Virus record (IMG/VR): IMGVR_UViG_3300025108_000030
Direction: 5' to 3' (one strand)
DNA from: an uncultured virus (IMG/VR IMGVR_UViG_3300025108_000030)
Taxonomy: Duplodnaviria > Heunggongvirae > Uroviricota > Caudoviricetes > Kyanoviridae
DNA length: 20,000 bases
Each line of letters begins with the position of its first letter. Position 1 is the stretch's first letter. The position numbers were made by a program, and so were the translations under genes. Positions 9,805-15,221 of this stretch are shown piece after piece. The notes beneath the pieces are model-generated. The model was not told the origin of the DNA. It did not search any database and worked only from the letters and a program-made list of their open reading frames with translations.

Positions 9805-11178
9805 ATGTCTTTACGTCAACTCCAGGAGAAGTGGGCACCCGTTCTGAATCACGATGCTCTTCCAGAGATTCAAGATTCCCACAAGCGCGGCGTCATCGCT
9901 CAACTCCTCGAAAACCAAGAGAGAGCACAAGTCGAAGAAGGTCAAATCCTTAACGAGACTCTACAAACAACTGGCTACACTGGTGCCAGCACAGCGACAG
10001 GTCCTGTTGCAGGTTTCGACCCTGTACTGATCAGCCTCATCCGTCGCTCCATGCCTCAGCTTATCGCTTATGATATTGCTGGTGTTCAACCAATGACTGG
10101 TCCTACTGGACTGATCTTCGCAATGCGTACCAACTATGGTTCCGAGCGCGATCCTAATGCTTCTGGTTACGATGAAGCATTCTTCAACGAGCCTAACGCT
10201 GGTTTCTCTGGCGGTCCTGGTGCATACGATCCTGGTGCGTCTGACGCAACCAACGATGCAGAAGGTAACAACCCTGCTCTCCTCAATGATGGTTCACCTG
10301 GAACCTATGAGTTGACTGGTGATGCTCAAGGCATGTCAACAGCAACCGTTGAGGGTCTTGATGACTCTGCAGCGAACACGGCATTCCGTGAGATGGGTTT
10401 CTCGATCGAGAAAGTCACTGTAACCGCCAAGGCACGCGCCCTGAAGGCTGAGTACAGCATCGAGATGGCACAAGACCTGAAGGCAATTCATGGTTTGGAT
10501 GCTGAAACTGAACTGGCAAACATCCTCAGCACAGAGATCCTTGCTGAAATCAACCGCGAAGTCGTTCGTACTATCGTAGTTAACGCTGTTGCTGGTGCTC
10601 AGAACAATACCGCTACTGCTGGTATTTTCGACCTCGACGTTGACTCCAACGGTCGCTGGTCTGTTGAGAAGTTCAAAGGTCTTCTTTTCCAAATCGAAAG
10701 AGATGCTAACGCTATCGGTCAGCAAACTCGTCGCGGGAAAGGCAACATCCTGATCTGTTCTGCCGACGTTGCTTCTGCACTGGGCATGGCTGGTGTTCTT
10801 GACTACACCCCTGCTCTTGCTGGCAATAACGCCCTTACAGGTGTTGATGATACCTCCAGCACACTGGTTGGTACACTCAACGGTCGTATCAAGGTCTATG
10901 TTGATCCTTACTCTGCAAACGTTGCAGACAAGCACTTCTATGTTGCTGGTTATAAGGGTACTTCACCTTATGACGCTGGTCTGTTCTATTGCCCATATGT
11001 TCCTCTTCAGCAGGTTCGTGCAATCAACCCTAACACCTTCCAACCAAAAATCGGTTTCAAGACTCGCTACGGCATGGTCTCGAACCCCTTCTCTGGTGGT
11101 CTTACCCAAGGCAGCGGTGCTCTTACCGCCAACGCCAACAAGTACTACCGTCGTGTACAGGTTGCCAACCTTATGTGA
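9805..11178 (+). CDS. gp23: Major capsid protein
   Basis: 457 aa. 'LQEKWAPVL', 'GVQPMTGPTGLIFAMR', 'ARALKAEYS.E.AQDLKAIHGLDAE', 'FQPKIGFKTRYG' motifs. Confidence 0.98.
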   Translation: MSLRQLQEKWAPVLNHDALPEIQDSHKRGVIAQLLENQERAQVEEGQILNETLQTTGYTGASTATGPVAGFDPVLISLIRRSMPQLIAYDIAGVQPMTGPTGLIFAMRTNYGSERDPNASGYDEAFFNEPNAGFSGGPGAYDPGASDATNDAEGNNPALLNDGSPGTYELTGDAQGMSTATVEGLDDSAANTAFREMGFSIEKVTVTAKARALKAEYSIEMAQDLKAIHGLDAETELANILSTEILAEINREVVRTIVVNAVAGAQNNTATAGIFDLDVDSNGRWSVEKFKGLLFQIERDANAIGQQTRRGKGNILICSADVASALGMAGVLDYTPALAGNNALTGVDDTSSTLVGTLNGRIKVYVDPYSANVADKHFYVAGYKGTSPYDAGLFYCPYVPLQQVRAINPNTFQPKIGFKTRYGMVSNPFSGGLTQGSGALTANANKYYRRVQVANLM

Positions 11179-11218
11179 GTCAGGTTGTTGTGGGGCAGGA
11201 TGTCCCACATGCCCTTTC

Positions 11219-11244
11219 AGACCTCCTACAAGGGGGTCTTTTTT
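11219..11244 (+). terminator. Intrinsic terminator after gp23
   Basis: AGACCTCCT-ACA-AGGGGGTCT 9-bp stem (one G:U) followed by a T run. Confidence 0.85.
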
Positions 11245-11299
11245 ATGCCTAGGTATAAATTAGTAGGCAATAATATTCGTTGCATAAAGTTAGTATTTC

Positions 11300-11328
11300 C
11301 TGACAAACTAGTATAGATAGTATAGAAT
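11300..11328 (+). promoter_or_regulatory. Sigma70-like promoter CTGACA-N17-TAGAAT
   Basis: -35 CTGACA at 11300-11305, -10 TAGAAT at 11323-11328, spacing 17, each box 5/6 to consensus. Overlapped by a tandem 9-mer TAGTATAGA x2 (11309-11326). Confidence 0.55.
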
Positions 11329-11394
11329 TACGAGGTGAACAAATGAACCCAAATTTCATTTATATTATGTACTGCAATCACGAACGGAAAAACT

Positions 11395-11553
11395 ATGAAC
11401 AACCTCGCTTCTAGAAATCAGTTATACGAATGGTCACACTTTGAGGATTCTATCGAATTAGAAAAAATAAACGATTACTACGAATGCCTAATTGAATGTA
11501 CAGATACACATCAAGCATCATGTAAAAGAATCTGCAAGGAAGTGCTTATGTAA
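11395..11553 (+). CDS. Small cysteine-rich protein (52 aa; CX3C-X7-CX3C), not in the ORF track
   Basis: MNNLASRNQLYEWSHFEDSIELEKINDYYECLIECTDTHQASCKRICKEVLM*. GGA at 11386-11388 as a weak SD. Bounded by a promoter and a terminator. Confidence 0.8.
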   Translation: MNNLASRNQLYEWSHFEDSIELEKINDYYECLIECTDTHQASCKRICKEVLM

Positions 11554-11589
11554 GTCATATACATACTATACCGTGTGAAGGAAGTGAAC

Positions 11590-11616
11590 GAGGTCTCTAT
11601 TGGGACCTCTTTTTTT
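11590..11616 (+). terminator. Intrinsic terminator after the Cys-rich ORF
   Basis: GAGGTCTC-TATT-GGGACCTC 8-bp stem followed by T7. Confidence 0.85.
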
Positions 11617-11620
11617 GTAC

Positions 11621-11627
11621 CTAAATA
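11621..11627 (+). promoter_or_regulatory. Probable late promoter CTAAATA for the oxygenase-gp3 operon
   Basis: Directly after the terminator, 22 nt before ATG 11650. No other late motif seen ahead of gp3. Confidence 0.55.
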
Positions 11628-11649
11628 TCTTTAGATAGAATGATTCATT

Positions 11650-12240
11650 ATGATTACCGATAGTAAATTTGAAGATTTCATCGGCATCTTTGATACCGAA
11701 TATGATACTTCAGATCTTATTGAGTATTGGGAGTACCAAAATAAATGTGGTGCTACCTTTAATCGAAAAGGATTGTTTGGTAAAGAACGAAAAGCACATG
11801 CAAGAATTGATAACAGTTTAGTTACTGAAGAGTTTATGCTCGATCACACTTGCGGTTATCAATATATGAGAGCATACAATGAAGTTATTTCTACTTGCTT
11901 AGGTAAGTACATTGATAAGTATGAACAACTTTTACATTATAGATATCAACAAGTTTATCTAAACGTGCAGAAAACTTTGCCTCAGCAAGGTTATCATGCT
12001 TGGCATGACGAGAGAGGATCGATGGGGTGTAATCGAAGGGTTGCAGCAACTATGATGTATCTCAATGATGTTGATGAGGGTGGAGAAACTGAGTTTTTAT
12101 ATCAATCTAAAAGATATAAACCAGTAAAGGGAAGAGTCCTTATTTGGCCAGCAGGTTATACTCATGTTCATAGAGGCAACCCTCCACTATCGGGCGAAAA
12201 ATACATCGCCACTTCTTGGTTAGAAAACATAAACGCATAA
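11650..12240 (+). CDS. 2OG-Fe(II) oxygenase superfamily protein
   Basis: 196 aa. 'GYHAWHDE' (HxD/E), 'MMYLNDVDEGGETEF', 'WPAGYTHVHRGNPPLSGEKYIATSW' match cyanophage prolyl-hydroxylase-like oxygenases. Confidence 0.92.
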   Translation: MITDSKFEDFIGIFDTEYDTSDLIEYWEYQNKCGATFNRKGLFGKERKAHARIDNSLVTEEFMLDHTCGYQYMRAYNEVISTCLGKYIDKYEQLLHYRYQQVYLNVQKTLPQQGYHAWHDERGSMGCNRRVAATMMYLNDVDEGGETEFLYQSKRYKPVKGRVLIWPAGYTHVHRGNPPLSGEKYIATSWLENINA

Positions 12241-13345: not shown

Positions 13346-14815
13346 ATGACTGACCTTGTAATAAAAAAGAAGAATGAAGTCTATCTCAAGATAGACGCAG
13401 AACCTCATGTCAATTACGAATTAGCAGATTACTTTTGCTTTGAAGTTGAGTCTGCAAAGTATATGCAGAAGCAACGTCGTTGGAAGGGATGGGATGGAAA
13501 GATTCGTTTATACTCACCTGCAACAGGAGAGATCTATTGTGGTCTTCTAGACTACCTATTAGAGTGGGCGGATGAAAAGAAGTACAACTACAAATTTCAA
13601 GACTGTAAGTTCTTTGGACATCCTCTAGAGCAGAATGAGTTTATCACTCCTCAGGGTGTTGTAGGTTTTGTAAAGTCTCTTCGGTTGCCTTATCCCGTTC
13701 GGGATTATCAGTATAAAGCAATATACGAGGCACTAAAATATAATAGAAGACTTTTATTATCACCGACAGCTTCTGGAAAGTCTCTGATGATTTATGCATT
13801 AGTACGCTTTCATGTAAATGCAAATAGAAATGTTCTTATTGTAGTCCCTACAACATCTCTAGTGGAGCAGATGTATAAAGACTTTGAAGAATATGGATGG
13901 ATGGCGTCCGAAAACTGCCACAAAATATATGCGGGGCAGCAAAAATATACGGACCATCAGGTGGTAATTACCACTTGGCAATCTATCTATAAGGAACCTC
14001 GTAAGTGGTTTGATAGGTTTGACGTAGTTATTGGTGACGAGGCACACCTTTTCAAAGCTAAATCTCTGACTTCTCTTATGTCTAAGATGCATGAATGTAA
14101 ATATCGTATTGGATTTACAGGAACTCTTGATGGTGCAAATGTCAATCAATTAGTTTTGGAGGGTGTCTTTGGAAGGTGTTCCCAAGTAACACGAACTGCT
14201 CAACTAATGCAGGAAGGACATGTTGCCAAATTAAAAGTAAAGATTGTTCTAGTGAAGCATGAGGAAAAACTGTTTGAAGGATATCAAGATGAGATCGGAT
14301 ACCTTGTAGAACATGAAGGTAGAAATAAATTCATTCGTAATCTTGCTTGTGATCTGAAGGGAAATACTCTAGTGCTATTCAACTATGTAGAGCGTCATGG
14401 GGTCCCTCTTTACGAGATGATAAATAGTTACACCGAAAGACCAGTACATTTTGTACATGGTGGTGTAGATGTTAACGACCGTGAAGACATCAGATTGCTA
14501 ACTGAACAGTCTGACAATGCTATCATTGTTGCTTCTTACGGTACTTTTTCCACAGGCATCAACATCAAAAGATTACACAACGTTATTTTTGCAAGTCCTT
14601 CAAAGTCCAGAGTTCGCAACCTACAATCTATAGGTCGTGTTCTAAGGAAAGGCGAAAATAAATCTCAAGCAACATTATATGATATTGCTGATGATATCTC
14701 TACCGATAGAGGTAACAACTACACACTCAACCATTTAATGGAAAGAGTTAAAGTGTACAATCAAGAAAAATTTAATTATGAAATCATAGATGTCAACTTA
14801 AAAACTTATGATTAA
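13346..14815 (+). CDS. uvsW: SF2 RNA-DNA/DNA helicase UvsW
   Basis: 489 aa. 'WDGKIRL', Walker A 'SPTASGKS', 'DEAH' box, 'FSTGINI', 'QSIGRVLR'. Confidence 0.96.
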   Translation: MTDLVIKKKNEVYLKIDAEPHVNYELADYFCFEVESAKYMQKQRRWKGWDGKIRLYSPATGEIYCGLLDYLLEWADEKKYNYKFQDCKFFGHPLEQNEFITPQGVVGFVKSLRLPYPVRDYQYKAIYEALKYNRRLLLSPTASGKSLMIYALVRFHVNANRNVLIVVPTTSLVEQMYKDFEEYGWMASENCHKIYAGQQKYTDHQVVITTWQSIYKEPRKWFDRFDVVIGDEAHLFKAKSLTSLMSKMHECKYRIGFTGTLDGANVNQLVLEGVFGRCSQVTRTAQLMQEGHVAKLKVKIVLVKHEEKLFEGYQDEIGYLVEHEGRNKFIRNLACDLKGNTLVLFNYVERHGVPLYEMINSYTERPVHFVHGGVDVNDREDIRLLTEQSDNAIIVASYGTFSTGINIKRLHNVIFASPSKSRVRNLQSIGRVLRKGENKSQATLYDIADDISTDRGNNYTLNHLMERVKVYNQEKFNYEIIDVNLKTYD

Positions 14816-15221
14816 TTACGCAAGACATGATGAAGAATTCTACGGAGTTTTCAAACTCCTCAATGGTGAGGAAGTTTTAGGTAAAGCAGTGCTTACAGAA
14901 GATGATGGAGAAACCTTAGTGTTTATCCAAGATCCTGTTTGCACCCAAGTAGTTCATAAAGAACTCGACGAAGGAAAACTAGTTCGTGGAGTAGGGTTTT
15001 CTAAATGGATGCAGTTTTCTAATGAGGACTTCTTTATTTTACGTGAGAAGGATATTCTTACGGTAACCTCAATGAGTAAAGAAGTTTCATACTTATACGA
15101 AGCTTTTATTCTTAGTGAAGATGACGAGAAGTCATCTAAAAAAGATCTAGAACCCGAGATGGGTTACCTAGGTAAAATTAATGAAGCAAGAAAGCTCTTA
15201 GAGAAGATCTATAGAAGCTAG
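14808..15221 (+). CDS. Hypothetical protein between uvsW and gp55 (possibly Sm-like fold)
   Basis: 137 aa. 'KLLNGEEVLGK' beta-rich N-terminus and 'MGYLG.I.EARK.LEKIY' C-terminus. Overlaps the uvsW stop. Confidence 0.75.
   Translation: MINYARHDEEFYGVFKLLNGEEVLGKAVLTEDDGETLVFIQDPVCTQVVHKELDEGKLVRGVGFSKWMQFSNEDFFILREKDILTVTSMSKEVSYLYEAFILSEDDEKSSKKDLEPEMGYLGKINEARKLLEKIYRS

Follow-up and report, generated by a model that had tools for sequence, protein, structure and literature searches.

Small RNAs of phages are little known, and those of cyanophages hardly at all. Escherichia coli O157 prophages encode the anti-sRNA sponges AgvB and AsxR, the targets of which are Hfq-dependent regulatory small RNAs (sRNAs). 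Another sponge of sRNAs, 3′ETS-leuZ, is a tRNA-operon spacer RNA. Pairing with tRNAs is known from T-box leaders, from the retroviral primer-binding site and A-rich loop, and from complexes of tRNAs with complementary anticodons. For cyanophages, the small RNAs CfrI, PhotoRC-II, wcaG, manA, glnA, and abiF have been listed (PMC9964418). In the cyanobacterial hosts, the motif and the gene order of the sRNA Yfr1 are described in PMC2190773. In this study, we analyzed a window of 20,000 nucleotides (nt), this being the whole stretch of DNA under consideration, from the IMG/VR record IMGVR_UViG_3300025108_000030, which comprises 111,931 bases of a T4-like cyanomyovirus (Kyanoviridae). The subject is a short conserved core followed by a terminator hairpin at positions 11571-11616 of this window, its perfect complementarity to the anticodon arm of the host tRNA-Val(CAC), and its relation to Yfr1, for which the original prediction on this DNA had proposed the locus as a phage-encoded sponge.

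The core lies between an open reading frame (ORF) encoding a cysteine-rich protein of 52 amino acids (aa) and an intrinsic terminator. The parts of the element are as follows:

11558 to 11569, plus strand: weak promoter-like stretch, TATACATA overlapped by the -10-like TACTAT

11571 to 11586, plus strand: core CCGTGTGAAGGAAGT(G), predicted single-stranded 5′ seed of an sRNA, or an element of the 3′-untranslated region (UTR)

11590 to 11616, plus strand: intrinsic terminator with an 8-bp stem and a 4-nt loop, GAGGTCTC-TATT-GGGACCTC (11590-11609), and a run of seven T residues (11610-11616)

The strings on which the sponge proposal had been built were all found in place, with TATACATA at 11558-11565, TACTAT at 11564-11569, and GTGTGAAGGAAGTG at 11573-11586. 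Folding of 11571-11616 gave -14.6 kcal/mol with the core left unpaired, and this predicted structure shows hallmarks of a trans-acting base-pairing sRNA, i.e. an intrinsic terminator together with an unpaired seed.

Conservation of the motif above its flanks had been put forward as a check, and it was borne out in an alignment of nine phages as well as in two further sets of loci. In the alignment, TACCGTGTGAAGGAAGTG was identical in 8/9 phages, the alignment covering five genera, and ACG-2014a keeps it though its terminator stem is unrelated. In the ninth phage, which belongs to the S-RIM12 RW04 lineage, a 9-nt unit is deleted, and CCGTGTGAAGGAGGT remains. The two sets of loci were chosen from IMG/VR independently of the motif, anchored either on the 52-aa ORF or on the stop codon of gp23 plus TGATATAAT. 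The ORF-anchored set comprised 80 loci with 53 distinct downstream sequences, 21 of which carry the exact 13-mer GTGTGAAGGAAGT and two the A-to-G variant GTGTGGAGGAAGT; two more are cut off, and in the other 28 the core is missing and the stop codon runs straight into the terminator. Among the 64 distinct sequences (109 loci) of the gp23-anchored set, a core-like element was present in 55, located 5-9 nt downstream. Here, the exact 13-mer was found in 51 sequences, the exact 15-mer in 24, and ACGTGTGAAGGAAGT in 21, and the nine sequences without core were mostly unrelated chance matches to the pattern. Conservation ends at the core, and linkers and terminator stems are replaced freely between phage genera. 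Conserved as well are the two A residues of the core that would be bulged out in a pairing with Yfr1, the flanking CC, and the following G. Core conservation is far above chance.

Within the phage record, neither a second copy of the core nor a complementary target site was detected within three mismatches, except for one chance match. Rfam gave no match on the window at the gathering score, and in 11150-11700 at E values up to 10 only chance terminator look-alikes were obtained. The core and its complement as text strings were absent from the literature searched, and a search of the literature on cyanophage small RNAs and tRNA anticodons and on phage sRNAs and host shutoff returned nothing relevant. 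As a side observation, AAGGAAGTG is present twice at a distance of 41 nt, at 11537-11545 (in the end of the ORF, as codons K-E-V) and at 11578-11586 within the core; this duplication may be a trace of the origin of the 3′-UTR element, or chance.

For the analysis of genomic contexts, IMG/VR was searched with the exact 15-mer, yielding at least 119 loci with at least 100 distinct contexts. Among the matches listed, eight contexts are GC-rich, seven of them being evident chance matches in coding DNA and the eighth being locus L311, which is discussed below; a few low-GC contexts are also coding. Locus L274 represents a genuine tRNA-Val(CAC) gene, located on the opposite strand. In 68/92 low-GC contexts among the matches listed, a promoter-like element ends 4-9 nt upstream of the core, 52 of these elements belonging to the -10 type, in many cases preceded by TGn or by a full TTGACA-N17, and 16 to the late TATAAATA type. 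Within 48 nt, a hairpin at least as strong as -8 kcal/mol was found in 88/92 of the same contexts, and in relatives the hairpin is kept with wholly different stems. In the window, TATACATA has one mismatch to the late promoter TATAAATA and ends 5 nt ahead of the core. Its interpretation as late-promoter-like gained support from relatives that have a perfect TATAAATA at this place, ending 6 nt before the core (L134, L145, L146, L156, L164, Syn19, and S-SM1). Other relatives have CTAAATA 5-6 nt before the core, and further ones TGnTATAAT or TTGACA-N17-TATAAT at a distance of 4-9 nt.

The usual homes of the core in T4-like cyanophages are the 3′ side of the Cys-rich ORF or of gp23 itself. In many relatives, the core cassette directly follows the gp23 stop codon, the C-terminus ...YYRRVxVxNLM* preceding TGATATAAT and the core. 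About 22 contexts among the matches listed sit in phage tRNA arrays, where core and hairpin form the leader of tRNA-Gly(UCC) or tRNA-Leu(UAG), or where the core begins 1-2 nt past the 3′ end of tRNA-Thr(UGU) or tRNA-Asn. In every setting the core is located at a predicted RNA 5′ end, which would arise by initiation or by tRNA processing. A predicted RNA of about 45 nt starting near 11571, or alternatively a 3′-UTR element, as put forward originally, is thus well supported by comparison, the promoter-to-terminator layout being the commonest one in IMG/VR. The start of the short RNA is predicted at about 11570-11572.

Two further observations concern the sequences ahead of the core. An odd promoter form in tRNA arrays is shared by L195, L196, L204, L225, L239, L259, L268, L272, L285, and L297; it consists of TTGACA, an inverted-repeat spacer (GACAnnnn...nnnnTGTC), and TATACT, and the inverted-repeat spacer may be an operator. 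In 21 distinct contexts downstream of gp23 from the set L438-L546 (e.g. L440), TTCCTT before the core can pair with AAGGAA of the core, and the resulting hairpin (6 bp, 7-nt loop) would form in read-through gp23 mRNA. It would be absent from an RNA starting at the A after TATAAT, and masking of the seed may therefore be confined to the long mRNA.

The reverse complement of the 15-nt core, ACTTCCTTCACACGG, was found with no mismatch and once per genome in 5/5 marine Synechococcus genomes, the chance expectation for an exact 15-nt complement being about 0.005 per genome. It is always located within a 72-nt tRNA (65.6 bits with Rfam), which is called tRNA-Val with anticodon cac by ARAGORN. Positions 11571..11586 are the perfect antisense of the canonical positions 25-40 of tRNA-Val(CAC). 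The 15-nt match includes A26, CUUCC as the 5′ strand of the anticodon stem, UUCACAC as the complete loop, and G39-G40, and it extends to 16 nt in the window and to 17 nt in Syn9. An exact-match scan of host tRNAs revealed the 16-nt match as the longest one in the phage genome G000 outside of tRNA genes. The flanks of the core show no tRNA similarity beyond the anticodon arm, and therefore the core is not a tRNA remnant. A tRNA gene at the core was also considered and rejected, as ARAGORN calls only a tRNA-Arg at 111367-111442 in the 112-kb record.

Bases adjoining the core extend the complementarity. In low-GC contexts among the matches listed, the base after the core is G in 68/92, pairing with C25, and the base before it is T in 69/92, pairing with A41. 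A subfamily of 21 distinct contexts reads TTCCTTACGTGTGAAGGAAGTG, in which 19 positions are identical to the 22-nt perfect antisense, two are wobble-compatible, and one is a mismatch. Natural variants of the core, i.e. A8G (L141, L188, and L541) and the deletion of the S-RIM12 RW04 lineage (...GGAGGT), still pair with the tRNA through G.U. The anticodon arms of phage tRNA-Val(UAC) genes adjoining the core in L195, L196, and L271 show no pairing with it (-9.7 and -8.6 kcal/mol).

As a control for duplex energies, 5000 composition-matched shuffles of the purine-rich 19-mer were used. The duplex with tRNA-Val(CAC) reached -31.0 kcal/mol, compared to a mean of -12.0 kcal/mol (standard deviation 2.6) for the shuffles, and 0/5000 shuffles attained its value. 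Among 37,304 windows sampled from the phage genome, the core also had the lowest duplex energy with this tRNA. With the unfolding of both RNAs paid, the net cofold gain was -17.6 kcal/mol with tRNA-Val(CAC) and -12.1 kcal/mol with Yfr1. For a tRNA-Val(CAC) antisense, contiguous complementarity beyond chance and a conserved target are both found. The 18-nt anticodon arm is invariant in 58/64 host-family genomes of at least 2.0 Mb and occurs in just 6/57 smaller genomes, which are of Prochlorococcus size. The cassette is present in 5/10 phages isolated on Synechococcus, namely as exact form in Syn9 (core at 119,422-119,436), Syn19, S-SM1, and S-SSM5 and as variant in S-SM2, and in 0/6 phages isolated on Prochlorococcus.

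The best reading of the element is, in our view, an sRNA directed against tRNA-Val(CAC), which we favor tentatively and at a little below an even chance. According to this reading, region 11571-11616 would encode a small phage RNA, transcribed from its own weak late-type promoter or formed as the 3′ end of the mRNA of the Cys-rich ORF. The first 15-16 nt of this predicted RNA, CCGUGUGAAGGAAGU(G), would be single-stranded and followed by the terminator hairpin. The seed would pair first with the 7-nt anticodon loop UUCACAC, and invasion of the 5′ strand of the anticodon stem would follow. Stable complexes are formed by loops with seven complementary bases, and in tRNAs reading GNN codons the anticodon loop has little bulky modification. 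We infer that the RNA is expressed, that it binds the folded and modified tRNA, and that translation is affected. The tRNA-Val(CAC) would thereby be sequestered or marked for cleavage, and the decoding of GUG, the commonest Val codon of the host and almost unused by the phage, would be slowed. GUG accounts for 48% of Val codons in 36 host ORFs, for 6.7% in 58 phage ORFs, and for 0/29 in gp23, and the host/phage GUG ratio of 7.1 is the largest among the eight four-fold codon families. As GUG is common in the host and rare in the phage, an abundant RNA against tRNA-Val(CAC) late in infection would hurt host translation far more, and the outcome could be a codon-selective brake on host translation at this stage. 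In its widest form, the proposal would be that of a widespread, undescribed cyanophage sRNA, occurring in stand-alone cassettes behind gp23 as well as in leaders and trailers of tRNA operons, the seed of which disables tRNA-Val(CAC) and so starves host mRNAs and spares those of the phage. In this full extent, we regard it as possible but doubtful.

Several points weigh against an sRNA directed against tRNA-Val(CAC). Only the 10-mer GTGTGAAGGA is invariant over all sRNA-like variants, and this 10-mer also fits the pairing with Yfr1 (9 bp, one bulge). A sigma-70 scan of the window did not call the promoter at 11558-11569; with a weak and uncalled promoter, the core in the window may therefore act mainly as 3′ UTR. 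Half of the tested Synechococcus phages are devoid of the element, and the split by host (5/10 versus 0/6) is suggestive, being statistically not significant. Phage S-PM2, in which the element is missing, shuns GUG equally (7.8%), and low GUG use in the phage is therefore explained by AT-richness alone. Also, the host has tRNA-Val(UAC) and tRNA-Val(GAC); tRNA-Val(UAC) may read GUG by wobble, and therefore any effect would be blunted. No second anti-tRNA seed was found above control level when 43 host tRNAs were compared with G000, Syn9, S-SM1, S-SM2, and S-PM2, so that the core stands alone and does not represent a class. In its mature form, a tRNA is tightly folded and modified; it is also abundant and for the most part occupied by EF-Tu or ribosomes, and the RNAduplex and cofold energies given here take no account of any of these properties. 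A co-evolution of seed and tRNA was not supported by covariation. In other cyanobacteria, compensated anticodon arms occur (CTACC..GGTAG, CTGCC..GGCAG, and CTTCG..CGAAG). sRNA-like cassettes with the seed GGCAG were found in 3/106 contexts (L572, L624, and L626, plus L573 and L628) and with the seed GGTAG in 2/94 contexts (L763, plus L669 and L740). The control seed GGACG, which fits no observed arm, gave 3/94 from a single lineage (L941, L958, and L988), and a doubly compensated seed was found in 0/101 contexts. The covariation counts thus do not discriminate matching from control seeds.

A cis-acting or protein-binding RNA element without any RNA target in trans is a rather unlikely explanation. 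Such an element could be a 5′ stabilizer, a ribosome pad similar to a Shine-Dalgarno (SD) sequence (AAGGAAGUGA), a signal for RNase E, J, or P in tRNA or late transcripts, or a binding site of a phage protein such as the Sm-like protein encoded in the window, and the likeness to the tRNA would be the relic of an inverted tRNA-Val fragment. The permanent location of the core at RNA ends or processing sites, including those right after tRNA 3′ ends, would agree with this, as would its purine-rich, SD-like composition, with both natural variants creating GGAGG. The retention of just 10 nt in all variants and the Sm-like protein gene in the window likewise point in this direction, and the non-discriminating covariation counts are compatible with it. 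An SD role leaves GUGUG and CC unaccounted for, and the predicted pairing with the 3′ tail of the host 16S rRNA is weak (-10.0 kcal/mol, equaled by 12% of shuffles). Moreover, the sRNA cassettes are followed by nothing translatable, and exactness over 15-17 nt, with promoters, linkers, and hairpins being replaced around it, would not persist in a relic.

The explanation put forward originally, i.e. a Yfr1 sponge or Yfr2 mimic with the seed GUGUGA-A-GGA-A-GU titrating host Yfr1 (and Yfr10) via ACUCCUCACAC and thereby de-repressing Yfr1 targets (such as som porins and ppa), is improbable. For its analysis, Yfr1 genes of four marine Synechococcus genomes were used, which were reached via psbA of S-RIM12, a motif search, and Rfam RF01116. 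The pairing with two single-A bulges was reproduced by RNAduplex on these four real Yfr1 RNAs, with a duplex energy of -15.7 kcal/mol and 12 pairs (5+3+4), comprising all 11 bases of the ACUCCUCACAC motif plus one additional pair; the invariant 10-mer covers 9/11 motif bases. As 52/37,304 sampled phage-genome windows bind Yfr1 equally well, the core belongs to the top 0.14%, and the net cofold gain given above also speaks for binding. Host Yfr2/Cyano-1 RNAs share the layout with a Yfr1-complementary motif at the extreme 5′ end and a hairpin behind it, and Yfr2 out-competes Yfr1 targets in vitro according to the accessible part of the paper on the Yfr1-Yfr2-Yfr10 interplay (PMC6778093), a part in which a phage sponge is not mentioned.

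The comparison of duplex energies with shuffles, named beforehand as one that could speak against a sponge, did so. The shuffles had a mean of -13.3 kcal/mol (standard deviation 2.6), and 18.5% of the 5000 were equal or better; by extrapolation, equally good binding of Yfr1 is expected at about 300 further sites of the 112-kb phage fragment. Also, a likeness to Yfr1, Yfr2, or Cyano-1 was not found by Rfam, neither at the gathering score in the window nor at E values up to 10 in 11150-11700; the same models recover the host copies at 42.7-67.8 bits. A selected sponge should converge on the perfect Yfr1 complement, as in the host Yfr2/Cyano-1 RNAs, which start with GUGUGAGGAGU(G). This complement is present in none of the phage seed variants seen at the examined loci, and every majority form of the phage seed has two A residues inserted with respect to it. 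The A residues in the bulges are conserved, and so are the flanking CC, the G that follows, and the 22-nt subfamily, although Yfr1 pairing gives none of them a role, and a contiguous partner of 15-17 nt exists in tRNA-Val(CAC). Yfr1 is present in most Prochlorococcus (PMC2190773), yet the element is absent from the six Prochlorococcus phages. Taken together, the sponge fails the energy test and is outcompeted by the perfect, conserved antisense match to host tRNA-Val(CAC). From the original prediction, the conserved motif, the promoter-like stretch, and the short sRNA or 3′ UTR are retained, and Yfr1 as the partner is given up. Concerning the host RNAs themselves, the marine Synechococcus Cyano-1/Yfr2 copies L091, L093, L097, and L108 open with the perfect complement of the Yfr1 motif and L099 and L114 only with GUGAGGAG; going by these sequences, the capacity for sponging Yfr1 may differ between Cyano-1/Yfr2 paralogues.

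Very improbable is a DNA-level pseudo-attachment or recombination site copying the anticodon-arm core of tRNA-Val(CAC) for an integrase or mobile element: the viral contig L311 (3300046171-type, core at locus 251-265) joins a Synechococcus-type tRNA-Val(CAC) sequence reaching from position 26 to the 3′ end, with the identity block starting at the boundary of the core, to unrelated DNA and thus resembles the attachment junction of an element integrating in this tRNA gene, and elsewhere the module flanks vary, with an HNH endonuclease gene in Syn33, but among the matches listed only L311 is of the attachment type, the identity ends in the 3′ stem strand (canonical 40/41) and never extends to the 3′ end of the tRNA, which would therefore be destroyed by integration, the fixed orientation to promoter and terminator (68/92 and 88/92 among the matches listed) is needless for a DNA site, and the natural variants are wobble-type. 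Integration is not known from T4-like cyanomyoviruses.

The surroundings of the element in the window are those of a late structural gene block, for which Pfam matches to terminase, sheath, tube, portal, prohead protease, scaffold, and gp23 were obtained. Downstream of gp23, a 2OG-Fe(II) oxygenase, UvsY, UvsW, an Sm-like protein, and nuclease-type ORFs with SMC_N/AAA and Metallophos matches follow, the latter of which we take to be gp46/gp47-like. Region 11150-11700 has 92% identity to Cyanophage S-RIM12 and Syn33 (Brizovirus) and is matched by 186 phage records, nearly all of them Synechococcus phages. The following further features were located:

9805 to 11178, plus strand: major capsid protein gp23 (Pfam PF07068, 5.4e-147)

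11219 to 11239, plus strand: terminator hairpin of gp23, from the terminator scan

11254 to 11394, plus strand: module head with the late promoter TATAAATT (11254-11261), a conserved leader, and a 23-codon upstream ORF

11343 (ATG) to 11414, plus strand: 23-codon upstream ORF with the strong SD sequence GAGGTG and the stop codon at 11412-11414, overlapping the start of the 52-aa ORF

11395 to 11553, plus strand: 52-aa Cys-rich ORF with the stop codon TAA at 11551-11553, the 3′ UTR of which carries the core

14808 to 15221: Sm_like protein (PF16243, E value 1.2e-44), 3.2 kb downstream of the sRNA-like element

The 52-aa ORF product, for which no match to a Pfam family was obtained, displays a twin CX3C pattern (ECLIEC ... 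SCKRIC). It is annotated as hypothetical protein in S-RIM12 and Syn33 and is unannotated in the S-CAM8 and ACG-2014 records; in IMG/VR, 259 relatives were confirmed. Its neighbors vary by genus and include 2OG-Fe oxygenase, gp3, and, upstream in Syn33, an HNH endonuclease. In the alignment of five genera, the module head 11254-11414 is nearly invariant and better conserved than the 52-aa ORF itself. The leader in this head comprises about 80 nt and includes a sigma-70-like CTGACA-17-TAGAAT. The module head may be a regulatory leader or serve translational coupling. The search of the Sm-like protein against PDB sequences gave no match. According to PMC2518516, Hfq is mostly missing from marine picocyanobacteria, and a cyanophage Sm-like pentamer is known, as cited in PMC3710371. 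Because most of these hosts lack Hfq, the phage Sm-like protein could be a chaperone of phage small RNAs.

The element is short, extremely conserved, and not contained in Rfam, and it is present in isolates that can be cultured and engineered (Syn9, Syn19, S-SM1, and S-SSM5), the engineering of cyanophages being established (PMC8776855). If binding to tRNA-Val(CAC) proved true, this would be the first case of a phage RNA with a demonstrated antisense action on a tRNA of its host. Such an RNA-based, codon-selective host shutoff acting directly on a tRNA would tie together three features noted for long in cyanophages, namely host shutoff, AT-rich codon usage, and the possession of tRNA genes. 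Even with Yfr1 or another target, the element would represent a testable family for host manipulation on the RNA level in the most abundant marine phototrophs.

Compared with described systems, the predicted RNA resembles host Yfr2/Cyano-1 (RF01701) as a short primary transcript with a conserved purine-rich 5′ seed, GUGUGAGGAGU in the host RNAs and a related sequence in the phage, followed by a hairpin. In contrast to Yfr2/Cyano-1, the phage RNA has no covariance-model match, no Yfr2 body, and a single terminator hairpin, and the two extra A residues of its seed spoil the pairing with Yfr1 and give a perfect tRNA-Val antisense. With AgvB and AsxR, it would share the property of a short phage-borne RNA proposed to pair with and remove a host non-coding RNA; unlike in these cases, the best partner here is a tRNA, the host is mostly devoid of Hfq, and the phage is lytic. 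In T-box leaders, the retroviral elements, and the tRNA-tRNA complexes, as in the proposed RNA, direct Watson-Crick pairing is aimed at one specific mature tRNA and involves its anticodon loop. The phage pairing would differ by extending into the anticodon stem (15-22 nt) and by belonging to a phage-encoded, trans-acting RNA, and no contact to the acceptor end is evident. A T-box leader as such was rejected, as neither a T-box fold nor an Rfam match was found. Finally, the core in the leaders or trailers of phage tRNA operons (about 22 contexts among the matches listed) would be freed by tRNA processing in the manner of 3′ETS-leuZ, whereas the phage spacer RNA would be antisense to a host tRNA and also occurs as a stand-alone cassette from promoter to terminator.

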